This document shows, in pieces, positions 21,653-34,456 of a stretch of DNA of 64,000 nucleotides (positions within the stretch are counted from its first letter, which is position 1; each line of letters begins with the position of its first letter). Made by a program: the position numbers and the translations under genes. The stretch is from Bythopirellula sp. (GTDB lineage Bacteria; Planctomycetota; Planctomycetia; Pirellulales; Lacipirellulaceae). The DNA is taken from NCBI GenBank assembly GCA_965216565.1, contig OZ244170.1, forward strand, positions 4,480,001-4,544,000. The letters run 5' to 3'. The notes beneath the pieces are model-generated. The model searched no databases and was not told the origin of the DNA. It saw only the letters and a list, made by a program, of their open reading frames with translations.

Positions 21653-22336
21653 TTAGGTGCACCTCTTCATGCTCATTCTGCGGCGTCGACTGACGAACGC
21701 ATAAGTACCCATGGCCAACAGAGCGATACTGGTTGGCTCTGGTACTTGGACTCCCCGGAAGCGGACTTCAGACAATCCAGCAGTTCCGTCATCGACCCCG
21801 CCTTGTACGGAGTTGATAGTGAGCCTGATTCGTCTCACATCATCAGCACCAGCACCAAGCGCGAAAACCTGTGCCGGTTCATTGAATCCACCAACGTTGG
21901 GATCCTGGGCAGGTGCCATGTTGATGGTGCCGATCGATACCAATGGCGATACAAGGTCTGAGGCTACAGAGATCTCGACTTCGTCAAGTTCGCGATCGGG
22001 CTCGGCAATGCCAAAGCCATTCAAACCGTTGTACTGCCAGAGAATGGCTTCACTTAGATCGTACCTAGCCTGGAGATCAAATTCGACCCATTCACCGATC
22101 GAAGTGCCTGTACCCAGGTTGAAACTTTGCCACATGTTGTTTTCATTGTTGTCGTGCAGTTGGTCTTCAACAAGTCCGACTCCCGAGAGTCCTGACCCAT
22201 TGACCAAGTTGTCGGCATCTGCGAACTCACTTGAGTTTGCTACCGGCAATGCAGGCGTCACGACATCCGCCTGTGCCTGTACGGTTGCCAGCGCCACGAT
22301 GAGCGTGCAACCTAAAACTAGTTTAATCCTGTCCAT
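21653..22336 (-). CDS. PEP-CTERM protein with discoidin/galactose-binding-like domain
   Basis: Signal peptide; WVEFDL..YDLSEAILWQYN..RRIRLTI..GLSEVRF; VPEPT + TM + RRRR. Confidence 0.85.
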   Translation of the reverse strand: MDRIKLVLGCTLIVALATVQAQADVVTPALPVANSSEFADADNLVNGSGLSGVGLVEDQLHDNNENNMWQSFNLGTGTSIGEWVEFDLQARYDLSEAILWQYNGLNGFGIAEPDRELDEVEISVASDLVSPLVSIGTINMAPAQDPNVGGFNEPAQVFALGAGADDVRRIRLTINSVQGGVDDGTAGLSEVRFRGVQVPEPTSIALLAMGTYAFVSRRRRMSMKRCT

Positions 22337-22604
22337 TAGCTACCTCCCGATATCAAGAAGAAAAGTAAATGCGAAATCTCTTCGGTCGCGAATTGCCTTG
22401 AAACAACCAGCGACCTGGAAAGCCGACGCGAAGACCCCGACTTGTTAGCCTTCAGAATAGTTGAGGGCCCGGTTTTAGTCAATTTTCTAAGGGTCTTAGG
22501 ACCCTCCGATTGGATCGGTCATTTGGGCTACTCTTGCCCCTTTTAGTAGGGTTTGGCTGGGCGTAACTCGTTTGGCTGCATGATTCAAAAGCAAATGAGC
22601 GGAT

Positions 22605-24521
22605 CTATCTGGACCGGCTTCTGCAGCTTCCAGCCAGCCCAGCCATTGCCAGCATCGACAACGCCAGGGAACTTGGCTCGGGAACTGAAGTGACAGTCGC
22701 AACCAATCCGAAGACCGATTGGTCACTGCCAGATTGTTCTTGCCAGATAAGTAGATCAAGTCCATTGGTCAGGCCATCGTTATTGGCATCGCCTTGCTCG
22801 TCCGTGCCATAGGCAAGTTCCCAAATGGCGAGGTCAAACCGATCTACCAATCCATCCGCATTGAAATCCGCCGCAAAACCATCAGGCGAAAGTTGAGGCA
22901 GAGTTGCCAGGTCCAACCGATACGCAACCTGATTGTATTCGTAGTTGGGCGTCGAGGGTGCCGAGCCGAAAAAGCCCGACGAGTAGGTGCCGTGGAAATG
23001 AACAAACTGGCCGTCGCCTTCATCAAAGAAAGGAAGCTGCGTTGGGTTGTAAAAGGAATAGGAGCCCCCCAAATCGCCGGTCGGGTCTCCGTGCGTCGCG
23101 ATCTTGATCGCATTTTTCCAAGGGCCTTCGGGAGTCGGTGCCTCGGCGTACCATACCTCGCCTAAGAAGCTTCCATTGCCTGCTGATTCGTTGCCAATCA
23201 TGATCCACTTCTGGCGATACTCATTCCAATTGACCGACGAGCGATGCAGTTTGACATCTTGGCCCGTTTCAAAATCGACTAAGCCGACCGGGGCCTCGGA
23301 ACGCGTGAGGTGGCCGTTGGTCACCATTTCCTCAAAGATCTCCGTGCCCAGGGGGTCGGTATTCTTTTTCCAGCCGTATATTGGGTTGCCGAAGCCGTCT
23401 AAGTCGAGTGGTGGGTTAGATGCGTCATAGCGAAAGTTTTCCTTCAAGGGAGTGAAGGCTTCCCACTGGGTGATGTCGTTGACTGCTGCCCAATCGTCAC
23501 GAACTCGGATATTTGGGTAGTTCTCGCCAAAGTAGATGTAGTCTTCCCCGCCGGTACTATGGCGGAAGGAATGGCCCGCCGGCACGATAGGTGGACCGGT
23601 GCCCCACTCTTGCTGTGGTGCTACCCCGTAGTCGTGGACTTTTGTAAAAGTTCCCGCGGAATGGTCGAACTGAGCCAACCCCTGTTCCAGAAGCACGAAC
23701 ACGGGAAAGAGCGACTGAACATTCACGAAGTGCGCCATGAGTTGCTCGGTGCCGTTGGGGTCTTCGACGGTAAAAACACCATCTACCCAAACGGGCTTAC
23801 CCGTCGACTGGTACTGAGGAAAAGCGGGCTTCGTTTGTCCCAGTCCATCTTCGTAGTAGGTGTAGTCGATGCCAGTACTTGGATTGAGCCCGCCACTAGT
23901 GGGCAATTCTGAGGTAGCTGCCGAAGTGAAGTAATTTCCGCCCAGCCCTCCGCCATTCTCGTACAACGAGTCGCCCCAGAACCAATGGATTTTTCCCCGC
24001 GAAACAACTGGCTGTACCGAATCTTGCCCAAGAACGTTGCCATTACTAATCGGTTCGTTGATTGGTACGTCCAGCCCAAGCTCAACGCTATCCTTGTAAA
24101 TATTGGGACCAGTGGCGCGATACAGTCTCTCGGCTCGATTATGACGGACAACAGAAATCTGACTCAGCGAGCCAGTGGTAGTCGATAACGTGTCGGACTT
24201 GCTCGCGTAGCCATAGCTGGCAAAGTCGAACTGCAGGTTCTGGTTGATCACACCTGCGTGATCGATCGCAATCATGCCCTGGCTGTCGGTGAAATAGGTC
24301 TGACCGCCGACCTTGGCTTGGACCATCGGTACGCCACGCCCGGAGACCGAGTCCACGATCTCCACGGTAAAATAGTTGGGATGCTGGGCTACTACAGAGT
24401 TAGCATTACCAACTAAATAGAGCACCCCAACAATTACGAGAGAGGCAGTCAATTGCTGAGGCAATAGCCGATTGGTGTCCACGACAAGATTGTCCCTCAC
24501 GAACCAGAAGACTTTCAACAC
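22605..24521 (-). CDS. PEP-CTERM protein with DUF4185-like propeller and dockerin-like Ca-binding repeats; start uncertain
   Basis: GQDSV..HWFWGDS..EGPW motifs; ADFNADGLVD..GDANNDGLTNGLDLLIWQ; VPEPSS tail. Confidence 0.75.
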   Translation of the reverse strand: MLKVFWFVRDNLVVDTNRLLPQQLTASLVIVGVLYLVGNANSVVAQHPNYFTVEIVDSVSGRGVPMVQAKVGGQTYFTDSQGMIAIDHAGVINQNLQFDFASYGYASKSDTLSTTTGSLSQISVVRHNRAERLYRATGPNIYKDSVELGLDVPINEPISNGNVLGQDSVQPVVSRGKIHWFWGDSLYENGGGLGGNYFTSAATSELPTSGGLNPSTGIDYTYYEDGLGQTKPAFPQYQSTGKPVWVDGVFTVEDPNGTEQLMAHFVNVQSLFPVFVLLEQGLAQFDHSAGTFTKVHDYGVAPQQEWGTGPPIVPAGHSFRHSTGGEDYIYFGENYPNIRVRDDWAAVNDITQWEAFTPLKENFRYDASNPPLDLDGFGNPIYGWKKNTDPLGTEIFEEMVTNGHLTRSEAPVGLVDFETGQDVKLHRSSVNWNEYRQKWIMIGNESAGNGSFLGEVWYAEAPTPEGPWKNAIKIATHGDPTGDLGGSYSFYNPTQLPFFDEGDGQFVHFHGTYSSGFFGSAPSTPNYEYNQVAYRLDLATLPQLSPDGFAADFNADGLVDRFDLAIWELAYGTDEQGDANNDGLTNGLDLLIWQEQSGSDQSVFGLVATVTSVPEPSSLALSMLAMAGLAGSCRSRSR

Positions 24522-24640
24522 AGTGACGGACGCTGTTGGAGAACCGCCAAAGAAATAACGCGGTACTCGCCTAGCAAACTAAACGAATACCGCGTGCCGC
24601 CCCATTGCTTTCTCTAAGCTGTTCTCTAGGCGAATTGAGT

Positions 24641-25729
24641 TTACTGGTCTCCACGGGGAAAATTCATTTTCTTTTCCAATTGGGCAAACCGCGGATCATT
24701 CCGGATACTGTCGAACCAGGGTTCCACTTGCAGGAAGACCAACTCCCAAGAGTGCTGCTCGTAGGCCTTTTCAAGCATTTCGAAGCCTTCGTCGGTTTCG
24801 CCCAATCCAAAATGCACATAGGCAATTTGCACTGGCGGAACGTAGTGCTGCGCTTCCCATTGCTTGAGCTGTCTGAGGATCCCCTGCGCTTTGACTTTTT
24901 CACCGGCTAGTGCGTAAGCATGCCCCAGCCCAGCCACGATTTCTGCTAGTCCGCCGGATAGTGAGACGGCCTTTTCGTAGGTTTCCAAAGCCTTGGGGAA
25001 TTTTTTCTGCTGCACATAGGCCATGCCGAGCCAATCGTAGGCCGGGGCGAAATCGGAATCTTGTTTGATGGCTATGGGGAGCTCTTTAACCATCCGCTCC
25101 CAATCCCGACCAAAGTACAGCACAGCTCCCATGCCGGTAATCATGCCTGGCGAATCGTCTATCTGGATGGCCCGTTGCGAGTGCTGCAAGGCCTCTTCGT
25201 GTCTGCCCCGCGATGCCAAAAAGAGAGCGTACCAATGAAGCGATTCTGCCTTCTTGGGATCAATCTGAACTGCCTCGGCAAAATGCTTTTCTGCGGCTTC
25301 CCATTCCCACTGAATAAGCTTAGCAATGCCCATGGATGTTTGGGCCCCGGCATCTTTTGGATCGAGCTCAATCGCCTGATTAGCTTGCGAGGTGAGCTTA
25401 GAGAGAATCTCGTCGCGGGGAACGAATCCAAAGCACCACAGCATCGAGTAAGCTTCGACTAGCTTAGCCCGATGTTCTGCCGATCTGGGGACGGAAACGG
25501 TCGCATACTCATACCGCTGGACCATTTCCTCGACACCCTCGCGGAAGGATTCCCCGGGATACTCCACGACAGACATCGAAATTTGTGTGCCTGTATCTTC
25601 AGCGCACAGCTTCGCGTTGGGGCAGAGCACAAAAGTGCAGCAAGTGAGACAGATTAGACGAATAGGAAGCGAGAATTGAATGTGCCTGACAAGAACAGCG
25701 TTGGCTGTAGCGGGTAGCAGCATGTTCAA
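24641..25729 (-). CDS. Secreted TPR protein
   Basis: Signal-like N-terminus; TPR repeats; C-terminal ...VEPWFDSIRNDPRF motif. Confidence 0.8.
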   Translation of the reverse strand: MNMLLPATANAVLVRHIQFSLPIRLICLTCCTFVLCPNAKLCAEDTGTQISMSVVEYPGESFREGVEEMVQRYEYATVSVPRSAEHRAKLVEAYSMLWCFGFVPRDEILSKLTSQANQAIELDPKDAGAQTSMGIAKLIQWEWEAAEKHFAEAVQIDPKKAESLHWYALFLASRGRHEEALQHSQRAIQIDDSPGMITGMGAVLYFGRDWERMVKELPIAIKQDSDFAPAYDWLGMAYVQQKKFPKALETYEKAVSLSGGLAEIVAGLGHAYALAGEKVKAQGILRQLKQWEAQHYVPPVQIAYVHFGLGETDEGFEMLEKAYEQHSWELVFLQVEPWFDSIRNDPRFAQLEKKMNFPRGDQ

Positions 25730-25820
25730 CCTGATTTACACTCCCTTCAAAATCTTGCGATCGCACACGATCGATGCGCATTCATCGTCCAACACATGTC
25801 TCGTATTAGTGCGGCAACTG

Positions 25821-26897
25821 CTATCTGTGCCTATGCTTTCGACGCCTACCTAGCAGCAGGCTACCCGCAAATGCACCGATTCCCAGGGCGATGGTACCCG
25901 GTTCGGGCACGCTGGCAATGTTGGCACCGAGCGATGTCTGCCCATATTCGCCTTCCCAGATAGCTAGATCATTGCTTGTGATCACATTGTTGTTGTCGAA
26001 GTCACCCTCACTCTTGGTGGCCGTTAGAGTCGAATTGAAGGTAGTATCAACTTCGCCGAGAGCCTGGATGATGCTTGTGGTAGGAACTTGAACTAGTCGG
26101 CTCACCTGCCAGGCTAGGAAGTCGAGGCCCGTAGTCATCCCGTCCGCATCCGCATCTGCAGCCAAGTCGAGATCGACAAGCGTGCCTTCAAAGCGGACTT
26201 CTGCAAGACCAACATATGGCTCGGGATTGTTCGGATCACTGCCGGGAGCATTCGGATCAAAATGGTTGGAATTGATGATCAGTCGCACGCGACGAATCCC
26301 TTTCACACTATTGGGATCAAACGAAACTACCTGAGCATTATTTAAATCTAGGCCAGTGTCGGCGTTCAGATTGAATGTGGTACCAACCGCGGTAAAGGTA
26401 TTGCCAGTGCGGTCGGGGCTGACCTGAATCTCATATTCATCGAGCCCGCGCGTGTCTGCGGATCCGTCCTCGTTGGCATTCCAGATATGCATGTCGGTGA
26501 GATCGTAGGAGCCATCGAATTCGAACTCTACAATTTGACCGTCTGGAGGATTGACGGCAAAGGGGTCGCTACAATTGCCGTTTGGATCTTCCAGCGAACC
26601 GCCATCAATCCCGCCGTCGAAGCAACCTGTAATCCACCCAGTGGGAGGTGCTCCACTAAATCCACCGTAGACGTCATGATCGTCGTCCAGGATGCCAGGG
26701 CCTCCTGCCGAGATTAGGCCAAAGCTTGTGAGCCCCACAGCGGGCCCTTGGTCGCCGTTCACTAAGTTTTCGAGGTTACTTCCAACGCCAAATTGGCTCG
26801 TGCCTCTCACATCAGAGGGCTTGATGACATCGGCGTGTACTGTGCCGACGGCAAGCAGGGCGACTAGCAGGCTGGCTGTTGTTAGTTTCATGATCAT
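25821..26897 (-). CDS. PEP-CTERM protein with discoidin-like domain and dockerin-like repeats (paralogue of 21653-22336)
   Basis: VEFEFDGSYDLTDMHIWN..RRVRLIINS..GLAEVRF; DADADG..LDFLAWQ; VPEPG + TM + RRRKHRHR. Confidence 0.85.
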   Translation of the reverse strand: MIMKLTTASLLVALLAVGTVHADVIKPSDVRGTSQFGVGSNLENLVNGDQGPAVGLTSFGLISAGGPGILDDDHDVYGGFSGAPPTGWITGCFDGGIDGGSLEDPNGNCSDPFAVNPPDGQIVEFEFDGSYDLTDMHIWNANEDGSADTRGLDEYEIQVSPDRTGNTFTAVGTTFNLNADTGLDLNNAQVVSFDPNSVKGIRRVRLIINSNHFDPNAPGSDPNNPEPYVGLAEVRFEGTLVDLDLAADADADGMTTGLDFLAWQVSRLVQVPTTSIIQALGEVDTTFNSTLTATKSEGDFDNNNVITSNDLAIWEGEYGQTSLGANIASVPEPGTIALGIGAFAGSLLLGRRRKHRHR

Positions 26898-27455: not shown

Positions 27456-30400
27456 ATGGCGCGACGAGGAAAAAAGAAGAAGAAGAGAAAAGCTCCTCGG
27501 AACGTGACGCCGGAGGCGGTGACGTCCGAAACCACGCAAGTGCCTTCGGACCCTCCTGCGAATCGCGTCCCCTGGAGTGCGCTAGGATTGATAGCAGTAG
27601 CCTTGGGCATTGGGCTCGCGATCTACTACCGGGCAGAGCCCCAGAATTCTCAAGACGAAAACAGAGCCGAGAATACGCAGAAGCCGTTCGTGGTGGAAGC
27701 AGATTTGAAGCCAGAGGATCTCGACTCCAAGCTCAATAACGCTACGGAGGTAAGCCTGCAACAGCAAGCAGACAGGCACCTCGACCCCAGCCTCGATGGT
27801 TGGGATACCGAAGTGATTGCCGAGCAGGCTAAGGTTCAACTCAAGCACCTCACGAAGAGATTGTCCGGCGCCGATTTGCCACGTTCCACCTGGGACGAAA
27901 TATCACCGCAGGTAGTCAGCGGGGCCCTTCGTCCCCAGTCGTTGAAAGAAGTGTTCCAAAATGGTGACTCCGGGAGCGCTATCAGGGTTAGGCGTCCGAC
28001 AGGGAACGAACCGCAGCCAGAGGTTCAAGGGCACTCAGAACTGCTCCGTGTTCTGGATGAATTGGCCGAGCCCTTTGGCTCCCAGGACGATATTCACACC
28101 AAGATAAAGGTGATACGGGTAACTGCCACGGCTGACACGGCAGAAACGACAGCGTACTACGAAGCTGATTGCCCTGTGGGGAACGGAAAGCTGCAACAGA
28201 GGGCCACTTGGCATTGCCAGTGGAAACAGACGCCGAGCGGATCTCTGCTATTGACCTCTATCAGAGCTGAGGATTTCGAAGAAGTGCTTACTGAAAGTCC
28301 CTGGTTCGTGGATTGCACGACCGCTGCACTCGGTAAGAACAAATCATTCCACGAGCAGCTCGTCTACGGGCTCAATCATTGGCTTCCTCGGCTGGGACGG
28401 GTGAAAGGTATGTTCGTTTACACTCGCAACGGGTTGAGTGTGGGAGACGTCAATGGCGATGGATTAGACGACTTGTACGTCTGTCAGCCAGGCGGACTTC
28501 CCAATCGGCTCTACATCCAGCAGCCCGATGGTACTTTGGTCGATCGCTCCCGTGAGGCGGGAGTCGACTGGCTAGACAAGACGACAAGCAGTTTGCTAAT
28601 CGACCTGGACAACGATGGCGATCAAGATCTTGCGGCGGCGACTATTTCTGGTTTGCTGATCATGGAGAACGATGGATCTGGCAAATTCAAATTGAAGAAC
28701 ACATTGGCTAGTAACGACATCGATACGCAATCAGTCTCCGCGGCCGATTACGATAACGATGGCGATCTCGACCTGTTTCTTTGCATCGAATTTGCCAGGA
28801 AGTCGACTCTAGGCCGTCAGTCGGATGTGAGGTTCGTCTATCACAATGCGAATGACGGAGCGGCGAATATCTTGTATCGCAACGATATTGCGAATAAGTC
28901 TTGGAAGTTCACCAACGTGACGAAGCAGACTGGGTTGGACGAGAACAATCGTCGTCATAGTCTGGCTTGTGCCTGGGAGGACTTCGACAACGACGGCGAC
29001 CAGGACCTCTATGTGGCGAACGACTACGGCCACAATTGCCTTTATCGAAACACCGACGGAAAGTTCGAGGACATTGCCGACGAGGTCAACGCACTCGACA
29101 CGGCCTCGGGAATGTCTGCCAGTTGGGGAGATTTCGACCACGATGGCTGGATGGACTTATACGTTGCCAACATGTTCTCCTCGGCAGGAAATCGGATCAC
29201 TCGGCAGGAGCAATTCAACTCGGGCAAGGATTCGCTGCAGGGAGTCTACTCGCGTTTTGCCAAGGGCAACACGCTGCTTCGCAATGTCAATGCCGAGCAG
29301 TTCAGCGACGTGGGGGCTGCCGCAAATGTTGAGATGGGACGCTGGGCTTGGAGCAGTGTGTTCTCCGATCTGAACAACGATTCCTGGGACGACTTGCTTG
29401 TTGCTAATGGATACATCTCGACCGAAGACTCGGGTGATTTGTGAAGTTTCTTCTGGCGGCAGGTCGTGTCGCAGGGTGGGAGTCCTACTAGCAGTGCTTC
29501 TGGCAACAGCGCTTCTGACGATCACGGTGCGCCGATGGGAGCCACGTTGCACACGTTAGTTCGTCAGGGTCGCGCCTTTAGCGGTAATGAGAAGAATTGT
29601 AGTTTTCTGAATTTGGGAGACGGAAACTTTGCCGACATCTCGGCTGTCTGCGGCTTTGATTTCCCCGACGACGGACGGGCGATCGCCCAGTGCGACTGGG
29701 ATGCTGACGGCGATGTCGATCTTTGGGTGGCAAACCGAAATGGACCTCAGGTGCGTTTCTTGAGAAACGACCTACAGTCTGGCAATCACTTCTTGTCCCT
29801 GCGTTTGGAAGGCAAAGACTGCAATCGCGATGCGATCGGAGCGCGTGTCGAGGTTGTTCTACAAGACGAATCAAACAGTCGGTTGATTAAGACTCTCAGG
29901 GCAGGAGAAGGTTTCTTGGCCCAATCGAGTAAGTGGGTTCATTTTGGGTTGGGATCGTCCGGCACGGAGGTTGATGTCAGTGTGACTTGGCCGGGCGGGG
30001 AGAAGGAGTCTTTCGGCTTGGTGGCGGCAGACGGTCGCTACTTGCTCGTCCAACACGCAGGACAAGCTCAGCCTGTATCGTCCCCAGCGCAAGGACAGGA
30101 TTTAAAACCTGAAACACTAAGAAAGCGCAAGACGGAGTCTGTGGCGCGAATACACTCCGCGGCAAAGATGCCTATGCCCGCTGTCAAATACGAAACGTTT
30201 GAGGGGCAGAAACGTCTTCTTGACTTTCACAACAGTGGGAAGCCAATTTTAATCAATCTCTGGGCGAGTTGGTGTCGAGCGTGTTTGGTCGAGTTGAAAG
30301 AGTTTGCTGAGCACTCGCAAGAGATAGAGGACTCGGGCCTGGAGATGTGGGCGCTATCGGTCGACAGACTTGATCTTGAAAAAGGCGACGAGTCTAACGT

Positions 30401-31193
30401 AGCCCCTGGGCAGTTGCAGGGCCTAGGCTTCGCGGGAAAAGCGGGTTGGGCCACTGAGAATACAACCGAAATTCTGCGTCTCATCAGGGAGCATCTGTTT
30501 GATACTCACCAGCCGATGCCGCTTCCCACAAGCATGTTGATCGATGCAAAAGGCCGCGTTTCCACAATTTATTATGGGCCCGTGCGTGTCGAGCAACTTT
30601 TAGAAGACGTAGCTTTGCTAGAAGAGTCGCTGCGAGCAGAGACGATGCCATTCCCAGGTCGGTGGCGAACTACTCCCCGCGGGATGAGTCCACTCGATCT
30701 TGTGTGGCAGATGGTTGAATCCGGCTATCAAGCACAAGCGATCGACTACGTCCAGCACCATCGGCCCTTAATCGAAAACCAGTACAAGGCTCCTAAGCTG
30801 TTTGTTCTTATCGGCAACAATGAGTTGAGCCGAGGGAATGCGGAGAATGCAGTCCGCTATTACAAAGACGCACTCGCGCTCGACGTGGATTATGACGAGG
30901 CCCTGAATAATCTCGCTTGGGTCTTAGCGACCAATCCAGATGAGAAATTGCGGGACGGCAAAGAAGCCGTGCGACTAGCGAGTGCGGCTGTGAGCCAGAA
31001 ACGGGGAAATACAATTTCTATGTTAGCCACCCTCTCTGTGGCCTATGCCGAGGATGGACAATTCGAGCAGGCGGTGCAAGTCGCGGAAGAGGCACAGGAA
31101 CTTGCTCGGGCCCAAGGCCATCAAGCGTTGGTCAAAGAATTGGAAAAACGTATTCGGGGCTTCAAAGAAGGCAGGCCTCATCGTTCCCCCTAA
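27456..31193 (+). CDS. Candidate selenoprotein: TM anchor + FG-GAP/CRTAC1 propeller + ASPIC/UnbV + TlpA-like redoxin (WCRAC) + TPR, read through TGA at 29442-29444 (1245 aa). Otherwise two ORFs, 27456-29444 and 29466-31193
   Basis: Both ORFs are in the same frame, joined by TGA AGT TTC TTC TGG CGG CAG GTC GTG (DL*SFFWRQVV). FG-GAP repeats (GDVNGDGLDDLY, DFDNDGDQDLYVAND) continue after the stop (DWDADGDVDLWVANR). ASPIC NRDAIGARVEV..VHFGLG; INLWASWCRAC; ALNNLAWVLAT. Domain calls are high confidence; read-through is moderate. Confidence 0.7.
29453..29474 (+). promoter_or_regulatory. Putative bacterial SECIS hairpin
   Basis: CU-(G bulge)-GCGGCA[GGUCG]UGUCGC-AG. The loop starts 17 nt after the UGA and shares GCAGGUC with the E. 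coli fdhF SECIS apex. Confidence 0.6.
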
Positions 31194-31254: not shown

Positions 31255-32382
31255 ATGTACAGACGCCGATTTCTTAAAAATCTTGCCACCAGCGGGTGCG
31301 GATTGTCACTCATTACATTGTTCGATCAGGATTGTGCCTTAGGAAAAGAGACCGCGGAAGGTTCGCTGTGCCAATCGGTTCGCAACCTGGGACCCCAGTT
31401 TCTCGAGAATCCATTGCGGATCACTGGCCAAGACGGGGCGACCTCTTGTCTCTTGCCTAGCGGAGATAGCCTTTGGCTTTTTGGCGATACCATGGAGGGC
31501 CCGTTCGAGTCGATCCGACATCACGATTTGACCCATGTCTTATCAAGTACTGCAGCGATTGTGTCCGCCCAGGACTACTCGCAGGGGATCAAGAGCTTCG
31601 AGTACCTCAAGGACTCCGATGGAAAGCGTGCACGACAGATTGTGAAGTTCGCCGAGGATGAAGACAAATCGCAACATCGTCTCTGGCCGATCCATAGCAC
31701 TTGCGTCGCGGACAACGTTTATGCGTTCTATCACAAGATCACCATGGACCCGCAGCGGGATGTGTTCGAAACCTTTGAGCTCAACGGAATGGGTATCGCC
31801 CGTGCCAAGATTGGCGAATTTCAGTTCGAGAGACTCGATGCACCAGACGGCTCCAAAGAATTCTGGAAAGGCGACCAGCCAGGATTTGGCGTTTTCACCG
31901 AGCAACTTCCCGATGGCTATCTCTACCTTTGGGGGAGTTATTGGACCGGCATGTTCCTGGCCCGTACGCGGGCGGAACAAATTGAAAAGTTGGAGAGTTA
32001 CGAATACCTGGTCGAAGCCCCAACGCTAGATAGTCCCCAGGCCGAGCCCAAGTGGGATAAGTCCCCGAAGCATGCGTTACCGCTCTTCGATAACGTGCCT
32101 AATGAGATGTCTGCCTCCTACAATCCCTATCTGGGCAAACATGTCGCGATTCATGTTTGGGGCCGAGAGAACAAATTGGTGATCCGCACCGCACCGGAAA
32201 TCTACGGACCCTGGAGCGAGCCAGAGGTGTTCTTCGAGCCACCTCGCCTCGGCGAAGCAGATCTATTTACCGCGGGGAAGGAACATCCCGAGATGCGACA
32301 AGCTAACGGCAAAAAGGTCTATGTGACTTATGTGAATTCAGCGCAATATATCCCAGTATTACTAGAAGTAACCCTGCGTTAG
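31255..32382 (+). CDS. DUF4185 family protein, Tat-exported (putative glycosidase)
   Basis: MYRRRFL Tat motif; GQDGATS..LWLFGDT..EMSASYNPYLGK..YGPWSEP..GKEHPE. Confidence 0.8.
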   Translation: MYRRRFLKNLATSGCGLSLITLFDQDCALGKETAEGSLCQSVRNLGPQFLENPLRITGQDGATSCLLPSGDSLWLFGDTMEGPFESIRHHDLTHVLSSTAAIVSAQDYSQGIKSFEYLKDSDGKRARQIVKFAEDEDKSQHRLWPIHSTCVADNVYAFYHKITMDPQRDVFETFELNGMGIARAKIGEFQFERLDAPDGSKEFWKGDQPGFGVFTEQLPDGYLYLWGSYWTGMFLARTRAEQIEKLESYEYLVEAPTLDSPQAEPKWDKSPKHALPLFDNVPNEMSASYNPYLGKHVAIHVWGRENKLVIRTAPEIYGPWSEPEVFFEPPRLGEADLFTAGKEHPEMRQANGKKVYVTYVNSAQYIPVLLEVTLR

Positions 32383-32642
32383 ATGTCTTGAGTCATAAGC
32401 TGCGAGTTTAAATAGATCGATCATTTCAAGGGTGTTTTTAGAGTCTTTCTAATTCCATTAGAACACGTTAGTTGCTAATTTGTATTCTATAGGCCGGGGC
32501 TCCCGCTGCATCACTTTTCCGTGCAGAGCGACAAGAGTTGGCTAGCGATTACAATGGCCAATCGGCTGAACCCTATATTTTTTATCTTCTTATTTAGTCC
32601 TTTTCCTTATTCGATCGACGTGAGTCCGAGAGGAGATTTGCG

Positions 32643-33758
32643 ATGCGTACACCGCGTTCCGCAACAACTCGTGCGTTCACTCTTGTAGAGTTATTGGTGG
32701 TAATTTCCATCATTGGGGTCTTGGTTTCCTTGTTGCTTCCTGCGGTCCAGGCAGCTCGAGAGGCGGCCCGGCGCGCGCAATGTTTGAACCATTTACGGCA
32801 AATGGGCCTTGGTGCCCTCAATCACGAGTCGGGGCACAAGATTCTCCCAGGAGCTGGCTGGGCCCCATGGTTGGCGGGCGACCCCGATCGAGGCGTTGGG
32901 CGCGACCAACCTGGGAGCTGGATCTACCAATTGCTGCCTTATGTGGAATACCAAAATGTGTACGACCTTCCCTCCGACGGGGATGCGTTGAATTATCGTA
33001 CGACTACCCAACGAGAAGCCACGAAACAGATGTTGGAGACACCGATCTCTATATTCAATTGCCCCTCGCGCAGACCCGCAGCTTTGTATCCTTGGGATGA
33101 TACATTGCCCAGCCTTTTCAACGTGATCAATGCTGATCCTTCGGAGGCCACGGCTCATAGTGACTACGCTGGCAATGCAGGAGATGCGTTTCCCGATGAA
33201 GGTTTAAATGGTGGGCTGCTCGACTTCTTTTTTAGGAGCCAAGAGTGCGGAAACAAAGGCCCTGATGACTTTGCAGAAGTTTTTCCTCCGCGACCATCGG
33301 CCGGCAAGTACACAAGAGTTGATGAACAGTTCTGCTGGCCCTCCGAGGATACACAAACGGGAGTTTGCTTCTTGGGCGCTGAAATGAGGCTTGTGGAAAT
33401 CACCGATGGCACCTCAAATACTTTCTTGTTTGGCGAAAAAGGCATGAATTCCGCGCTGTACGACACAGGCACAGATGGCGGCGACAACCAGTCTATGTAT
33501 TGCGGTTGGGATTGGGATGTGAATCGCTGGGGAGGTGGGCCTCGTTTTGATCTTGGTCTCGAATCGGCATTCATTCCCAAGCCAGATCAAGCGAACAACG
33601 ATCTAGATACTTGGCTTACCTGGGGGAGTTCCCATCCGGGCGGTTATCTGGTTGTATTATGCGATGGTTCCTCAACTTTCATTAGCTATGATCTGGATAC
33701 TAGGGCACTGGCTAATTTTTGTAACCGTTTTGATGGTGACGTCTCCAACGGAAACTGA
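32643..33758 (+). CDS. DUF1559 prepilin-type N-terminal cleavage/methylation domain protein
   Basis: AFTLVELLVVISIIGVLVSLLLPAVQAAREAARR; ITDGTSNT; SHPGG...CDGS (H-X9-DG). Confidence 0.96.
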   Translation: MRTPRSATTRAFTLVELLVVISIIGVLVSLLLPAVQAAREAARRAQCLNHLRQMGLGALNHESGHKILPGAGWAPWLAGDPDRGVGRDQPGSWIYQLLPYVEYQNVYDLPSDGDALNYRTTTQREATKQMLETPISIFNCPSRRPAALYPWDDTLPSLFNVINADPSEATAHSDYAGNAGDAFPDEGLNGGLLDFFFRSQECGNKGPDDFAEVFPPRPSAGKYTRVDEQFCWPSEDTQTGVCFLGAEMRLVEITDGTSNTFLFGEKGMNSALYDTGTDGGDNQSMYCGWDWDVNRWGGGPRFDLGLESAFIPKPDQANNDLDTWLTWGSSHPGGYLVVLCDGSSTFISYDLDTRALANFCNRFDGDVSNGN

Positions 33759-33787
33759 ATGGGTCTTTCATCGGATAGGAATGCAAA

Positions 33788-34456
33788 TTGATGCTTGCAG
33801 ATAAGTTCCAAAGGTTCTCAAAGATAGTTGGTCAGTTTCCTGTGATGCGGCGTAAAGCGACCTTGCTGGCAATGCTCTATGCCATCTGCCTGGGCTGCAG
33901 TAGTGGCCCTCCTGCTTTGCGGCCCCCTGAGCTTGACGCCCAAGAGGCAGCCGATAAGGCCATTGAGCTCTACGATGGGAACGGTGACGGGATTCTTTCT
34001 AAGGATGAGCTGAAGGCAAGCCCGGGGCTTTTAGCGGCAATGGAAACTTATGATACCGATGGTGACAAAAGCATATCGCGTGAGGAAGTGGCCCAGCGTC
34101 TGCAGAAATTTGTTGACCGCGAAGCTGCCTTAACGGGATTGATTGCAACCGTGCGAATGGATGGTAAACCAATCGTTGGTGCCAAAGTTTCTCTCATCCC
34201 CGAGGAATTTCTTGGCGAAGGTATTAAGCCAGCCTCGGGAACCAGCCAGAAACGAGGGGCTTGTAGAGTTGCCATTGCCAACGAGGATTTGCCGGAGGCA
34301 CAGAAGGGCATGCGTGGAATTCACTATGGCACGTATCGTGTCGAAATTACTCATCCAGATCACGACATTCCTGCCAAGTTCAATACCGAAACCACTCTCG
34401 GCTACGATACCAAGCCAGGGAGCTCTAGTGCCACATTCAATGTGAGTTCTCGCTAG
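33788..34456 (+). CDS. DUF1559-associated lipoprotein with EF-hand-like loops and carboxypeptidase-regulatory-like beta domain
   Basis: Lipobox CLGC; DGNGDGILSKDE and DTDGDKSISREE; GTYRVEI..IPAKFN..T.L. Confidence 0.75.
   Translation: MMLADKFQRFSKIVGQFPVMRRKATLLAMLYAICLGCSSGPPALRPPELDAQEAADKAIELYDGNGDGILSKDELKASPGLLAAMETYDTDGDKSISREEVAQRLQKFVDREAALTGLIATVRMDGKPIVGAKVSLIPEEFLGEGIKPASGTSQKRGACRVAIANEDLPEAQKGMRGIHYGTYRVEITHPDHDIPAKFNTETTLGYDTKPGSSSATFNVSSR

Follow-up and report, generated by a model that had tools for sequence, protein, structure and literature searches.

In the 64,000-nucleotide stretch of DNA analysed here (the window), two open reading frames in the same frame are joined through a UGA into a read-through gene whose product would carry selenocysteine (Sec). 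The gene, its predicted domains and the elements around the UGA are located as follows, with hairpin positions counted from the U of the UGA as 1.

27456..31193, + strand: read-through gene, two same-frame ORFs joined via the UGA, 1,245 residues with putative Sec at 663
27567..27623, + strand: hydrophobic segment, residues 38-56; its mean hydropathy of 2.09 is the highest of any 19-residue window of the protein
28266..30080, + strand: CRTAC1-like module, FG-GAP beta-propeller plus ASPIC/UnbV (Pfam PF13517, PF01839, PF07593)
29442..29444, + strand: in-frame UGA, putative Sec663, in D-L-U-S-F-F-W-R-Q-V-V; TGA at 111 of 130 distinct homologous sites
29445..29455, + strand: 11-nt spacer between the UGA and the stem, without gaps in 99 aligned UGA copies
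29456..29472, + strand: putative SECIS hairpin, positions 15-31, a six-pair stem with a 5-nt loop
29463..29464, + strand: apical GU, positions 22-23, putative SelB contact; G22 in 111/111 and U23 in 109/111 UGA copies
29598..29600, + strand: Cys715, perhaps a second thiol near the Sec insertion; 81 of 111 UGA copies have Cys here
30174..30560, + strand: TlpA-like thioredoxin domain (PF00578, PF08534)
30273-30284, + strand: WCRAC, the CxxC of the thioredoxin domain (Cys940/Cys943)
30804..31112, + strand: C-terminal TPR repeats (Pfam TPR models, most below their cut-offs)

Downstream of the UGA the frame remains open for 582 codons. Public gene calls split the gene into products of 662 and 552 residues, both found by exact look-up, and full-length sense-codon homologues share the architecture of the UGA-joined ORFs. 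A lysine/arginine-rich start precedes the hydrophobic segment 38-56, which is predicted to be a membrane anchor, with the remainder of the protein probably facing the periplasm. The CRTAC1-like module, in which an FG-GAP propeller is followed by an UnbV_ASPIC domain as in the CRTAC1 / ASPIC-UnbV family, spans the UGA as one predicted fold (AlphaFold2 pLDDT 91.7, pTM 0.93). Its best Foldseek match is murine CRTAC1 (9etn; E 5e-26, TM 0.65/0.71), with the runner-up at E 1.5e-8. In this model residue 663 opens a predicted helix (model helix 393-401) inserted in the propeller, and it sits within a strongly conserved motif. Promoter and terminator scans gave results at chance level (4 versus 4.0 and 7 versus 6.1, respectively); the hairpin lacks a T tail and was not among the terminators called.

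The earlier note had described a hairpin after the UGA at 29442-29476, with a GGUCG loop. The letters are as described, and RNAfold returns a 6-bp stem including one G-U pair (29456-29461/29467-29472) closed by this loop (29462-29466), which begins 17 nt past the UGA. The folding energy is -7.3 kcal/mol for positions 15-31 alone and -8.7 for positions 12-33, and the family median is -9.3 in UGA copies versus -4.4 in sense copies. An extension of the stem by CU/AG past a bulged G, also proposed in that note, fared less well: forcing it costs 1 kcal/mol (-7.7 versus -8.7 over positions 12-33), pair 12:33 is not kept, and 13:32, pairable in 83/111 UGA copies, is also pairable in 19/19 sense copies. 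The extension does appear when a longer piece is folded and its first 11 bases are kept from pairing. A seventh pair, 21:24, is supported by covariation (standard in 90/99 rows, with two-sided change in 12) and would leave GU as the mini-loop, with G25 bulged. The apical GU is found in sense copies as well (G22 18/19, U23 19/19), because it supplies the first two bases of a Val codon. The CU/AG extension, a conserved lower stem, and a pairing between positions 31-33 and the codon preceding the UGA were all tested across copies and rejected; some rows could form a small hairpin across the UGA (-4 to 6), with pairs that are either fixed by the protein or broken.

Without comparative evidence the hairpin does not exceed chance. 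Shuffled versions of the 81-nt region fold better than the region itself (z +1.49), and an Rfam scan of 29200-29800 returned no SECIS family and two chance snoRNA matches (E 5.9 and 8.8). The heptamer GCAGGTC is indeed common to this element and to E. coli fdhF (NC_000913.3), starting at position 19 there and 18 here and placing GU at 23-24 versus 22-23; at about the same distance it also follows 45 of the 156,224 TGA triplets of the genome. It is stem conservation, codon choice and covariation among homologues that raise the hairpin above chance.

These comparisons used 130 distinct homologous sites, obtained after removal of 2 duplicates and 6 chance loci, of which 111 carry TGA; none of those 111 stops is TAA or TAG. 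The five core pairs are intact in 106/111 UGA copies versus 2/19 sense-codon copies, so that the hairpin is kept with the UGA and mostly lost with a sense codon, a comparison that the earlier note had named as a test. The third-codon positions show the same division between UGA and sense copies (G27, 111/111 versus 6/19; G30, 109/111 versus 6/19), and random synonymous codons yield the stem in 2.8% of draws. The concern that the match might be driven by the protein is not borne out, since rows with the identical WRQVV peptide carry the stem codons GTC GTG in 80/81 UGA copies versus 0/13 sense copies. Among the UGA copies, 96.4% of 693 cells are paired and 28 are changed on both sides, a result reached by 0/500 shuffles and set against at most 10 two-sided cells in slid controls; the pairs with changes on both sides are 18:28, 20:26 and 21:24. 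In sense copies 48.1% of cells are paired, and a trace of covariation is retained (score 0.114, 1/500 shuffles). The synonymous-site and covariation checks (2.8% expected; 28 two-sided cells) thus both favour a SECIS. The suggestion that the hairpin mimics that of fdhF holds for its position and apical GU and fails for the element as a whole: the exact heptamer occurs in 40/111 UGA copies (83/111 if the first base may be A or G), and the bulged U17 has no counterpart, position 17 being G in 110/111 with positions 15-20 all paired. A pattern search for homologues with a Cys codon among metagenome contigs gave 6 matches, none of them family members.

The genome contains selA, selB and selD over cut-offs and tRNA-Sec(UCA) within 7 kb; selA, selB, selC and selD, the set expected of a bacterium with selenoprotein genes, are all present. 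The gene and its two paralogues in the genome all have the UGA and are identical over 19 bases at the hairpin. UGA sites span Planctomycetota, Acidobacteriota, Verrucomicrobiota, Gemmatimonadota and Kiritimatiellota. In a sample of 251 Planctomycetota genomes, the family occurs in 31, at as many as six copies per genome, and in none of the 68 genomes without selB; selB is present in 29/29 UGA-carrying genomes against a background of 183/251, an association that counts kin and not independent cases. A further search covered 50 of 65 UGA loci, 15 being dropped as their assembly was already included. Among these 50 genomes selB was found in 39 and selA in 9 others, and two (G002 and G013; 3.4 and 3.1 Mb, of unstated completeness) had no selB, selA or tRNA-Sec. 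selB is also present in 10/14 sense-codon genomes. The genome under study further encodes a Prx-like U-x-x-C selenoprotein with a similar hairpin, and no Sec-containing formate dehydrogenase was found in it. Five Sec candidates were found in the genome, four of which are FG-GAP propellers from two uncatalogued families.

At the protein level, Cys occupies the aligned site in 8/120 full-length sense homologues. The remaining 112 lack both Cys and Sec (Ser in 42, Ala in 30, Asn in 15, Gly in 8, other residues in the rest), Trp is absent from all 120, and at least ten non-Sec residues are tolerated. Such scarcity of Cys and Sec is unusual for a catalytic Sec. Most sense homologues form one Acidobacteriota-type clade that also lacks the CxxC and may have changed function. 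On the tree the UGA and sense states interchange at least 11 times, and Cys forms sit on several branches. The CxxC is kept in 99/104 scorable UGA copies versus 14/117 non-Cys sense copies, a count that omits rows ending before the thioredoxin domain (7 UGA, 2 sense), and in 2/6 Cys homologues. Cys715 is found in 81/111 UGA copies versus 7/119 non-Cys sense copies. The motif pattern behind the Cys715 count missed 14/120 proteins, leaving 6 Cys rows instead of 8. Retention of the CxxC alongside the UGA suggests a redox relay; among independent pairs, 5 were well supported, of which about 3.9 point in the same direction (median p 0.125, not significant), and for the link between Cys715/716 and the UGA independent pairs gave nothing (median p 1). 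A predicted packing of the thioredoxin domain against the propeller scored 0.88 in one Cys homologue (P0004), compared with 0.00 for the best of 3 controls; the mark for this score is reached by 116/157 solved complexes and 2/215 mismatched pairs. The runs agree in at least 85% of predicted contacts, with partner pLDDT of at least 85. This pass is partly expected because both domains belong to one chain, and the residues listed for the confident interface include neither Cys660, the Sec equivalent, nor Cys934/937.

Taken together, the open frame, the hairpin, the UGA-dependent selection at synonymous sites, the covariation, the Sec machinery and the tie between UGA and selB are established observations. 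On this basis the hairpin at 29456-29472 is very probably a bacterial SECIS, with the UGA at 29442 read as Sec in a likely membrane-anchored, exported CRTAC1-like protein. SelB carrying Sec-tRNA would bind to the hairpin, and the ribosome would then decode the UGA as selenocysteine to give a single protein of 1,245 residues. Actual insertion of Sec at 663, judged from sequence, is very likely. At low selenium, translation would end at the UGA and leave an incomplete propeller. The chances are roughly even that Sec663 is redox-active and is reset by the protein's own thioredoxin CxxC, perhaps via Cys715. Our best guess for the substrate would be thiol/peroxide chemistry on cell-envelope proteins held by the propeller and TPR parts.

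Could the hairpin, and with it the resemblance to fdhF, be a by-product of the WRQVVS codons? The GU at 22-23 is fixed by the protein and present in sense copies, the heptamer follows 45 genome TGA triplets, and shuffling does not weaken the fold of the region, all of which agree with this idea. Codon use for the same peptide (80/81 versus 0/13) and a stem kept in 106/111 copies against 2.8% of synonymous draws, with two-sided changes, refute it at the sequence level, and its probability is now minute. We regard as very unlikely a true stop between two cistrons, with the hairpin serving re-initiation or message stability. Public gene calls do list two products, an in-frame GTG lies 8 codons after the UGA, and a first ATG follows 30-39 codons on in 50/111 copies. 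However, the GTG is inside the stem and has no Shine-Dalgarno-like word ahead of it in 111/111 copies, the remaining 61 have their first ATG at scattered positions, and the peptide from the UGA to any start is conserved, in frame and gapless; moreover, the stop is always TGA (111/111) and the UGA form co-occurs with selB. Genome-wide reading of UGA as Trp or Gly could appeal to Gly at the site in 8/120 homologues, but the sole UCA-anticodon tRNA at the normal threshold is tRNA-Sec, paralogue 3 terminates with TGA, and no Trp occurs among the 120 homologues. A sequencing error or pseudogene lesion is contradicted by the same TGA at 111 sites in five phyla and by contigs from other runs, which show no alternative letter. 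The tRNA, paralogue, homologue and contig evidence excludes recoding, error and lesion, to which we give a vanishingly small probability.

A different kind of alternative accepts the UGA and the SECIS as real and sees them mainly as a selenium-dependent switch, whereby the full-length protein is made only with selenium and the chemistry of the residue is minor. It draws on the acceptance of at least ten other residues at the site, with Cys in only 8/120, on the 11 or more changes between UGA and sense states, and on the unfinished propeller that results from stopping at the UGA. Against it stand the CxxC in 99/104 UGA copies versus 14/117 non-Cys sense copies, the several branches with Cys forms, and the residue's place as the opening of a helix within a strongly conserved motif; in addition, the sense homologues are mostly one CxxC-less Acidobacteriota-type clade whose function may have changed. 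We consider the switch improbable.

Sec decoding at this UGA, by a mechanism that is itself textbook, very likely defines a widespread bacterial selenoprotein family absent from the selenoprotein catalogues examined. The family extends over five phyla, gene callers split its members in two, and we found no earlier report of Sec on a CRTAC1-like propeller fold. FG-GAP, ASPIC, CRTAC or VCBS proteins have no entry in the 2026 catalogue, deep-Sep or BSepDB, and no NCBIfam selenoprotein model scores over its cut-off on the Sec-bearing module. deep-Sep states a need for Cys homologues among the top hits; screens based on Cys pairs can miss families of this kind because Cys is present in only 8/120 sense homologues. 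More tentatively, and with somewhat less than an even chance, exported FG-GAP beta-propellers may constitute an overlooked selenoprotein class with a chemistry of its own, in which the propeller Sec is serviced by a fused thioredoxin domain. If so, FG-GAP selenoproteins may be a main reason why many Planctomycetota retain the Sec machinery, and the family would for the first time open the CRTAC1-like proteins of bacteria to biochemistry. With a reactive residue marked, direct tests of what bacterial CRTAC1/ASPIC proteins do become possible, and the 111 aligned elements define a SECIS variant (GU at 22-23, 3'-side bulge) that can be tested on non-enteric SelB.

In the E. coli fdhF SECIS, 11 nt separate the UGA from the stem, the bulged U17 is essential in E. 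coli, and G23/U24 are apical (PMC8659212). The element described here similarly lies within the ORF, with an 11-nt spacer, a hairpin at positions 15-31, the heptamer and an apical GU with a G-C closing pair, and 10/17 hairpin positions are identical at a shift of one. It differs in having GU at 22-23 instead of 23-24, a bulged G25 on the 3' side in place of the 5' bulged U17, and no conserved lower stem, and in belonging to a protein unrelated to formate dehydrogenase. The bSECIS consensus comprises a loop of 3-9 nt, a stem of 4-16 bp, a G in the first two loop positions, a distance of 16-37 nt from the UGA and an energy limit of -7.5 kcal/mol (PMC13188914). Loop size, stem length, loop G and UGA distance all fall within it here, and the energy is borderline (-7.3 bare, -8.7 with flanks). 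Murine CRTAC1 (9etn) has the same fold and the same domain pair (PF13517, PF07593) at 15% identity, whereas the present protein has in addition a membrane anchor, an N-terminal domain, a thioredoxin domain and TPRs, as well as a Sec codon, of which none is reported for the CRTAC1 family in the literature searched. With the thioredoxin-fold selenoproteins (Prx-like U-x-x-C, TlpA-like; PMC13188914) it shares a TlpA-like domain. No C-x-x-U, U-x-x-C or CU motif occurs around Sec663, and the Sec, unlike that of these proteins, is placed in the propeller, 277 residues upstream of a plain CxxC at 940-943.

The TGA at 29442-29444 closes an open reading frame of 662 codons (27456-29444), and 582 open codons then follow in the same frame, to 31193. 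Selenocysteine (Sec) is very probably inserted at this codon, as residue 663 of a read-through product of 1,245 residues, and we are almost as confident of the overall reading as the best explanation of the locus. Public gene calls of the same DNA give two cut pieces of 662 and 552 residues. The read-through product is composed as follows:

Residues 38-56, plus strand: hydrophobic segment, after a basic start
Domain order, read through: FG-GAP repeats, ASPIC/UnbV, a TlpA-like thioredoxin domain with WCRAC, TPRs

This architecture recurs in full-length homologues whose codon at the site is a sense codon. Using a 97-row alignment, AlphaFold2 generated a single confident fold for residues 271-875 that spans the UGA (pLDDT 91.7, pTM 0.93) and in which residue 663 starts a helix inserted between propeller strands. 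Its top structural match is murine CRTAC1 (9etn, E 5e-26), the runner-up reaching E 1.5e-8. According to this model, termination at the UGA would omit the last FG-GAP strands. Upstream, on the minus strand (21653-26897), lie genes for a TPR protein and for exported proteins of the PEP-CTERM type; downstream (31255-34456) are a DUF4185 gene and a DUF1559 prepilin-type gene.

Two paralogues in the genome, 66% and 53% identical around the site, share the TGA as well as 19 identical bases spanning the hairpin that follows it, and UGA serves elsewhere as an ordinary stop, at which paralogue 3 terminates. Contigs from other sequencing runs have no other letter at the TGA. They stack up and are interrupted at 29433-29473, where the stretch compared is most conserved, and those of runs X5 and X6 start or stop at 29444 and 29473, with a depth peak there; the UGA and its hairpin act as an assembly repeat because they are so exactly alike among paralogues.

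We compared 130 distinct sites, drawn from 79 loci of named genomes, a 251-genome sample of the phylum and the genome's own three copies. The codon is TGA at 111 sites and a sense codon at 19 (Gly 6, Ser 6, Glu 3, Ala 2, Asp 2), with neither TAA nor TAG at any of the 130. Counting from the U of the UGA, the candidate SECIS hairpin occupies positions 15-31, and its presence is tied to the TGA: all five core pairs are preserved in 106 of 111 UGA rows versus 2 of 19 sense rows, and arise in 2.8% of draws of random synonymous codons. Third-position G27 is found in 111/111 UGA and 6/19 sense rows, and G30 in 109/111 and 6/19. The earlier note had cautioned that the codons for WRQVV might partly drive the match; among rows with exactly this peptide, Val-Val is written GTC GTG in 80 of 81 UGA rows and in none of 13 sense rows, which speaks against that caveat. 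For upstream Val, Gly and Leu residues that are equally conserved, codon choice varies freely.

Covariation, which the same note proposed as a check, also favours the hairpin. In 99 distinct 36-base UGA rows, 96.4% of the cells of a seven-pair structure are paired, and two-sided changes occupy 28 cells at pairs 18:28, 20:26 and 21:24, a level reached in 0 of 500 shuffles that ignore kinship, so that these figures are not probabilities. Slid controls give at most 68.7% paired and at most 10 two-sided cells, and the 19 sense rows are 48.1% paired, with a trace of covariation remaining. One sense copy with an Asp codon (L118) still forms the stem. In another, with a Glu codon (L120, G270:C104), both the stem and the thioredoxin CxxC are still present and the genome has five UGA copies; its hairpin and CxxC are as expected of a recent UGA loss. 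At L057:4706-4741 (minus strand), a second, diverged copy on a very long branch faces the first, its TGA kept and its hairpin and motif decayed. Before the UGA (29439-29441), Leu is encoded by TTG in 82 of the 111 UGA copies and in none of the 19 sense copies, TTG making up 23% of Leu codons in the genome under study. We found no pairing that would explain this preference, which may reflect a tuning of termination against read-through.

The genome encodes selA, selB and selD, all above cut-offs, with tRNA-Sec(UCA) adjoining them (C1:683.7-689.6 kb). No internal stop occurs in either of its two molybdopterin enzymes, and the genome thus has no Sec-formate dehydrogenase. Heuristic scans for an in-frame TGA with hairpin and coding signal, which may miss other Sec genes, gave five candidates judged real, namely the three propeller-gene copies and the last two entries below:

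G000:C1:683744-689624 (L152): Sec cluster, selB-selA on the minus strand, divergent from a fused selD, tRNA-Sec after selD
G000:C1:1637274 (L149:469-1104), plus strand: Prx-like/AhpC-TSA lipoprotein with W-U-P-F-C, seven-pair hairpin, hairpin G at 25
G000:C1:3110400 (L148:540-2060), minus strand: second FG-GAP protein, lipoprotein-like, U-C dipeptide, in-frame TGA in V-P-G-V-W-U-C-T-S-S-T-P-Q

The selD product has Cys rather than Sec and is fused behind a domain that reads, from its sequence, as pyridine-nucleotide oxidoreductase-like. The second FG-GAP protein retains TGA in 34 of 35 matches, from 30 of the 251 genomes, all 30 with selB; the dipeptide is C-C in one homologue, the TGA is followed by a hairpin of five pairs with G at 24, and no NCBIfam model scores above cut-off. 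It is probably a second uncatalogued selenoprotein family.

In the phylum sample, filtered at 90% completeness, the propeller family occurs in 31 of 251 genomes, 29 with at least one TGA copy and 2 with sense copies only. All 31 have selB, versus 183 of 251 overall, and the family is found in none of the 68 genomes without selB (Fisher p 8e-5, overstated since kin are not independent). Of the 50 genomes from which the named UGA loci come, selB is found in 39; among the other 11, nine have selA, six of these also tRNA-Sec, and in two small assemblies none of selB, selA and tRNA-Sec was found. The UGA can thus be lost while the machinery stays, as selB is also found in 10 of 14 sense-codon genomes. 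In family f4, the well-assembled genomes of the same class, selB is found in only 1 of 17 genomes, compared with the overall rate in the sample; uncultured lineages of the phylum may use Sec far more often than isolates suggest.

The 120 best full-length sense homologues have Ser (42), Ala (30), Asn (15), Cys (8), Gly (8), Glu (6), Asp (5), Gln (2), Tyr (2), His (1) or Leu (1) at the Sec site. Such variety is unusual for a catalytic Sec, and it is the chief argument for a rival explanation in which the codon acts as a selenium-dependent switch. Against such a switch, 99 of 104 scorable UGA rows have the thioredoxin CxxC, compared with 14 of 117 non-Cys sense rows and 2 of 6 Cys rows. Likewise, Cys715 occurs in 81 of 111 UGA rows versus 7 of 119 non-Cys sense rows. 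In a FastTree phylogeny of 236 rows that left out the trait columns, the UGA state changes at least 11 times; CxxC follows UGA in about 3.9 of 5 well-supported independent pairs (median p 0.125), and Cys715/716 shows no association in independent pairs.

The reading we prefer to the switch is a redox-active Sec that would be reset by the protein's internal CxxC, to which we give about an even chance. In P0004, a homologue with Cys660 at the Sec-equivalent site, the prediction places the thioredoxin domain against the propeller with a score of 0.88, the best of three controls scoring 0.00; runs share at least 85% of contacts, the partner pLDDT is at least 85, and 116 of 157 solved complexes attain the packing mark, against 2 of 215 mismatched pairs. 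Residues 696 and 698 of the Sec-bearing insertion are among the contacts listed, Cys660 and the CxxC are not, and residues not named are uncertain. As these are two domains of one chain, the prediction mainly suggests that the segments on either side of the UGA form a single body.

The decoding mechanism is already known; the protein family appears undescribed in the literature searched. No FG-GAP, ASPIC, CRTAC or VCBS entry was found in the whole text of a 2026 review including its Table 1 (stated 119 families; PMC13188914), in four supplements of deep-Sep (PMC12013277), in one supplement of BSepDB (PMC13326102) or in the searched portion of SelCysML (PMC13745706). Full-text searches combining selenoprotein or selenocysteine with the domain names returned no such report among the listings and abstract openings covered. 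No NCBIfam 20.0 model falls on the Sec-bearing module, and the CRTAC1-family gene beside hydrazine-synthase homologues, as excerpted from PMC12758564, is a different protein.

On its own, the hairpin does not stand out: the 81 nt around it fold worse than their shuffles (z +1.49), and the heptamer GCAGGTC lies at about this distance after 45 of the genome's 156,224 TGA triplets. The sequence quoted in the earlier note for 29442-29476 matches exactly, and RNAfold returns the six-pair stem (29456-29461/29467-29472) with a 5-nt loop. The heptamer is the longest word shared with E. coli fdhF (NC_000913.3), starting at position 18 here and 19 in fdhF, and the apical GU is at 22-23 versus 23-24, as had been claimed. 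The proposed CU/AG extension fails, being 1 kcal/mol worse if forced and not conserved. The hairpin interpretation is supported, and its exact likeness to fdhF is to be trimmed. The fdhF hairpin comprises nucleotides 15-31, 11 nt from the UGA, with key sites U17, G23 and U24 (excerpt of PMC8659212). Our hairpin resembles it in the GU mini-loop geometry that arises from pair 21:24, which alternates between G-C (74) and C-G (10) in the 99 distinct UGA rows, but has its bulge on the 3' side, unlike that of fdhF at U17. The Prx-like W-U-P-F-C gene, a catalogued selenoprotein type, offers an in-genome comparison, and the propeller hairpin conforms to the consensus bacterial SECIS model as outlined in PMC13188914, with borderline energy.
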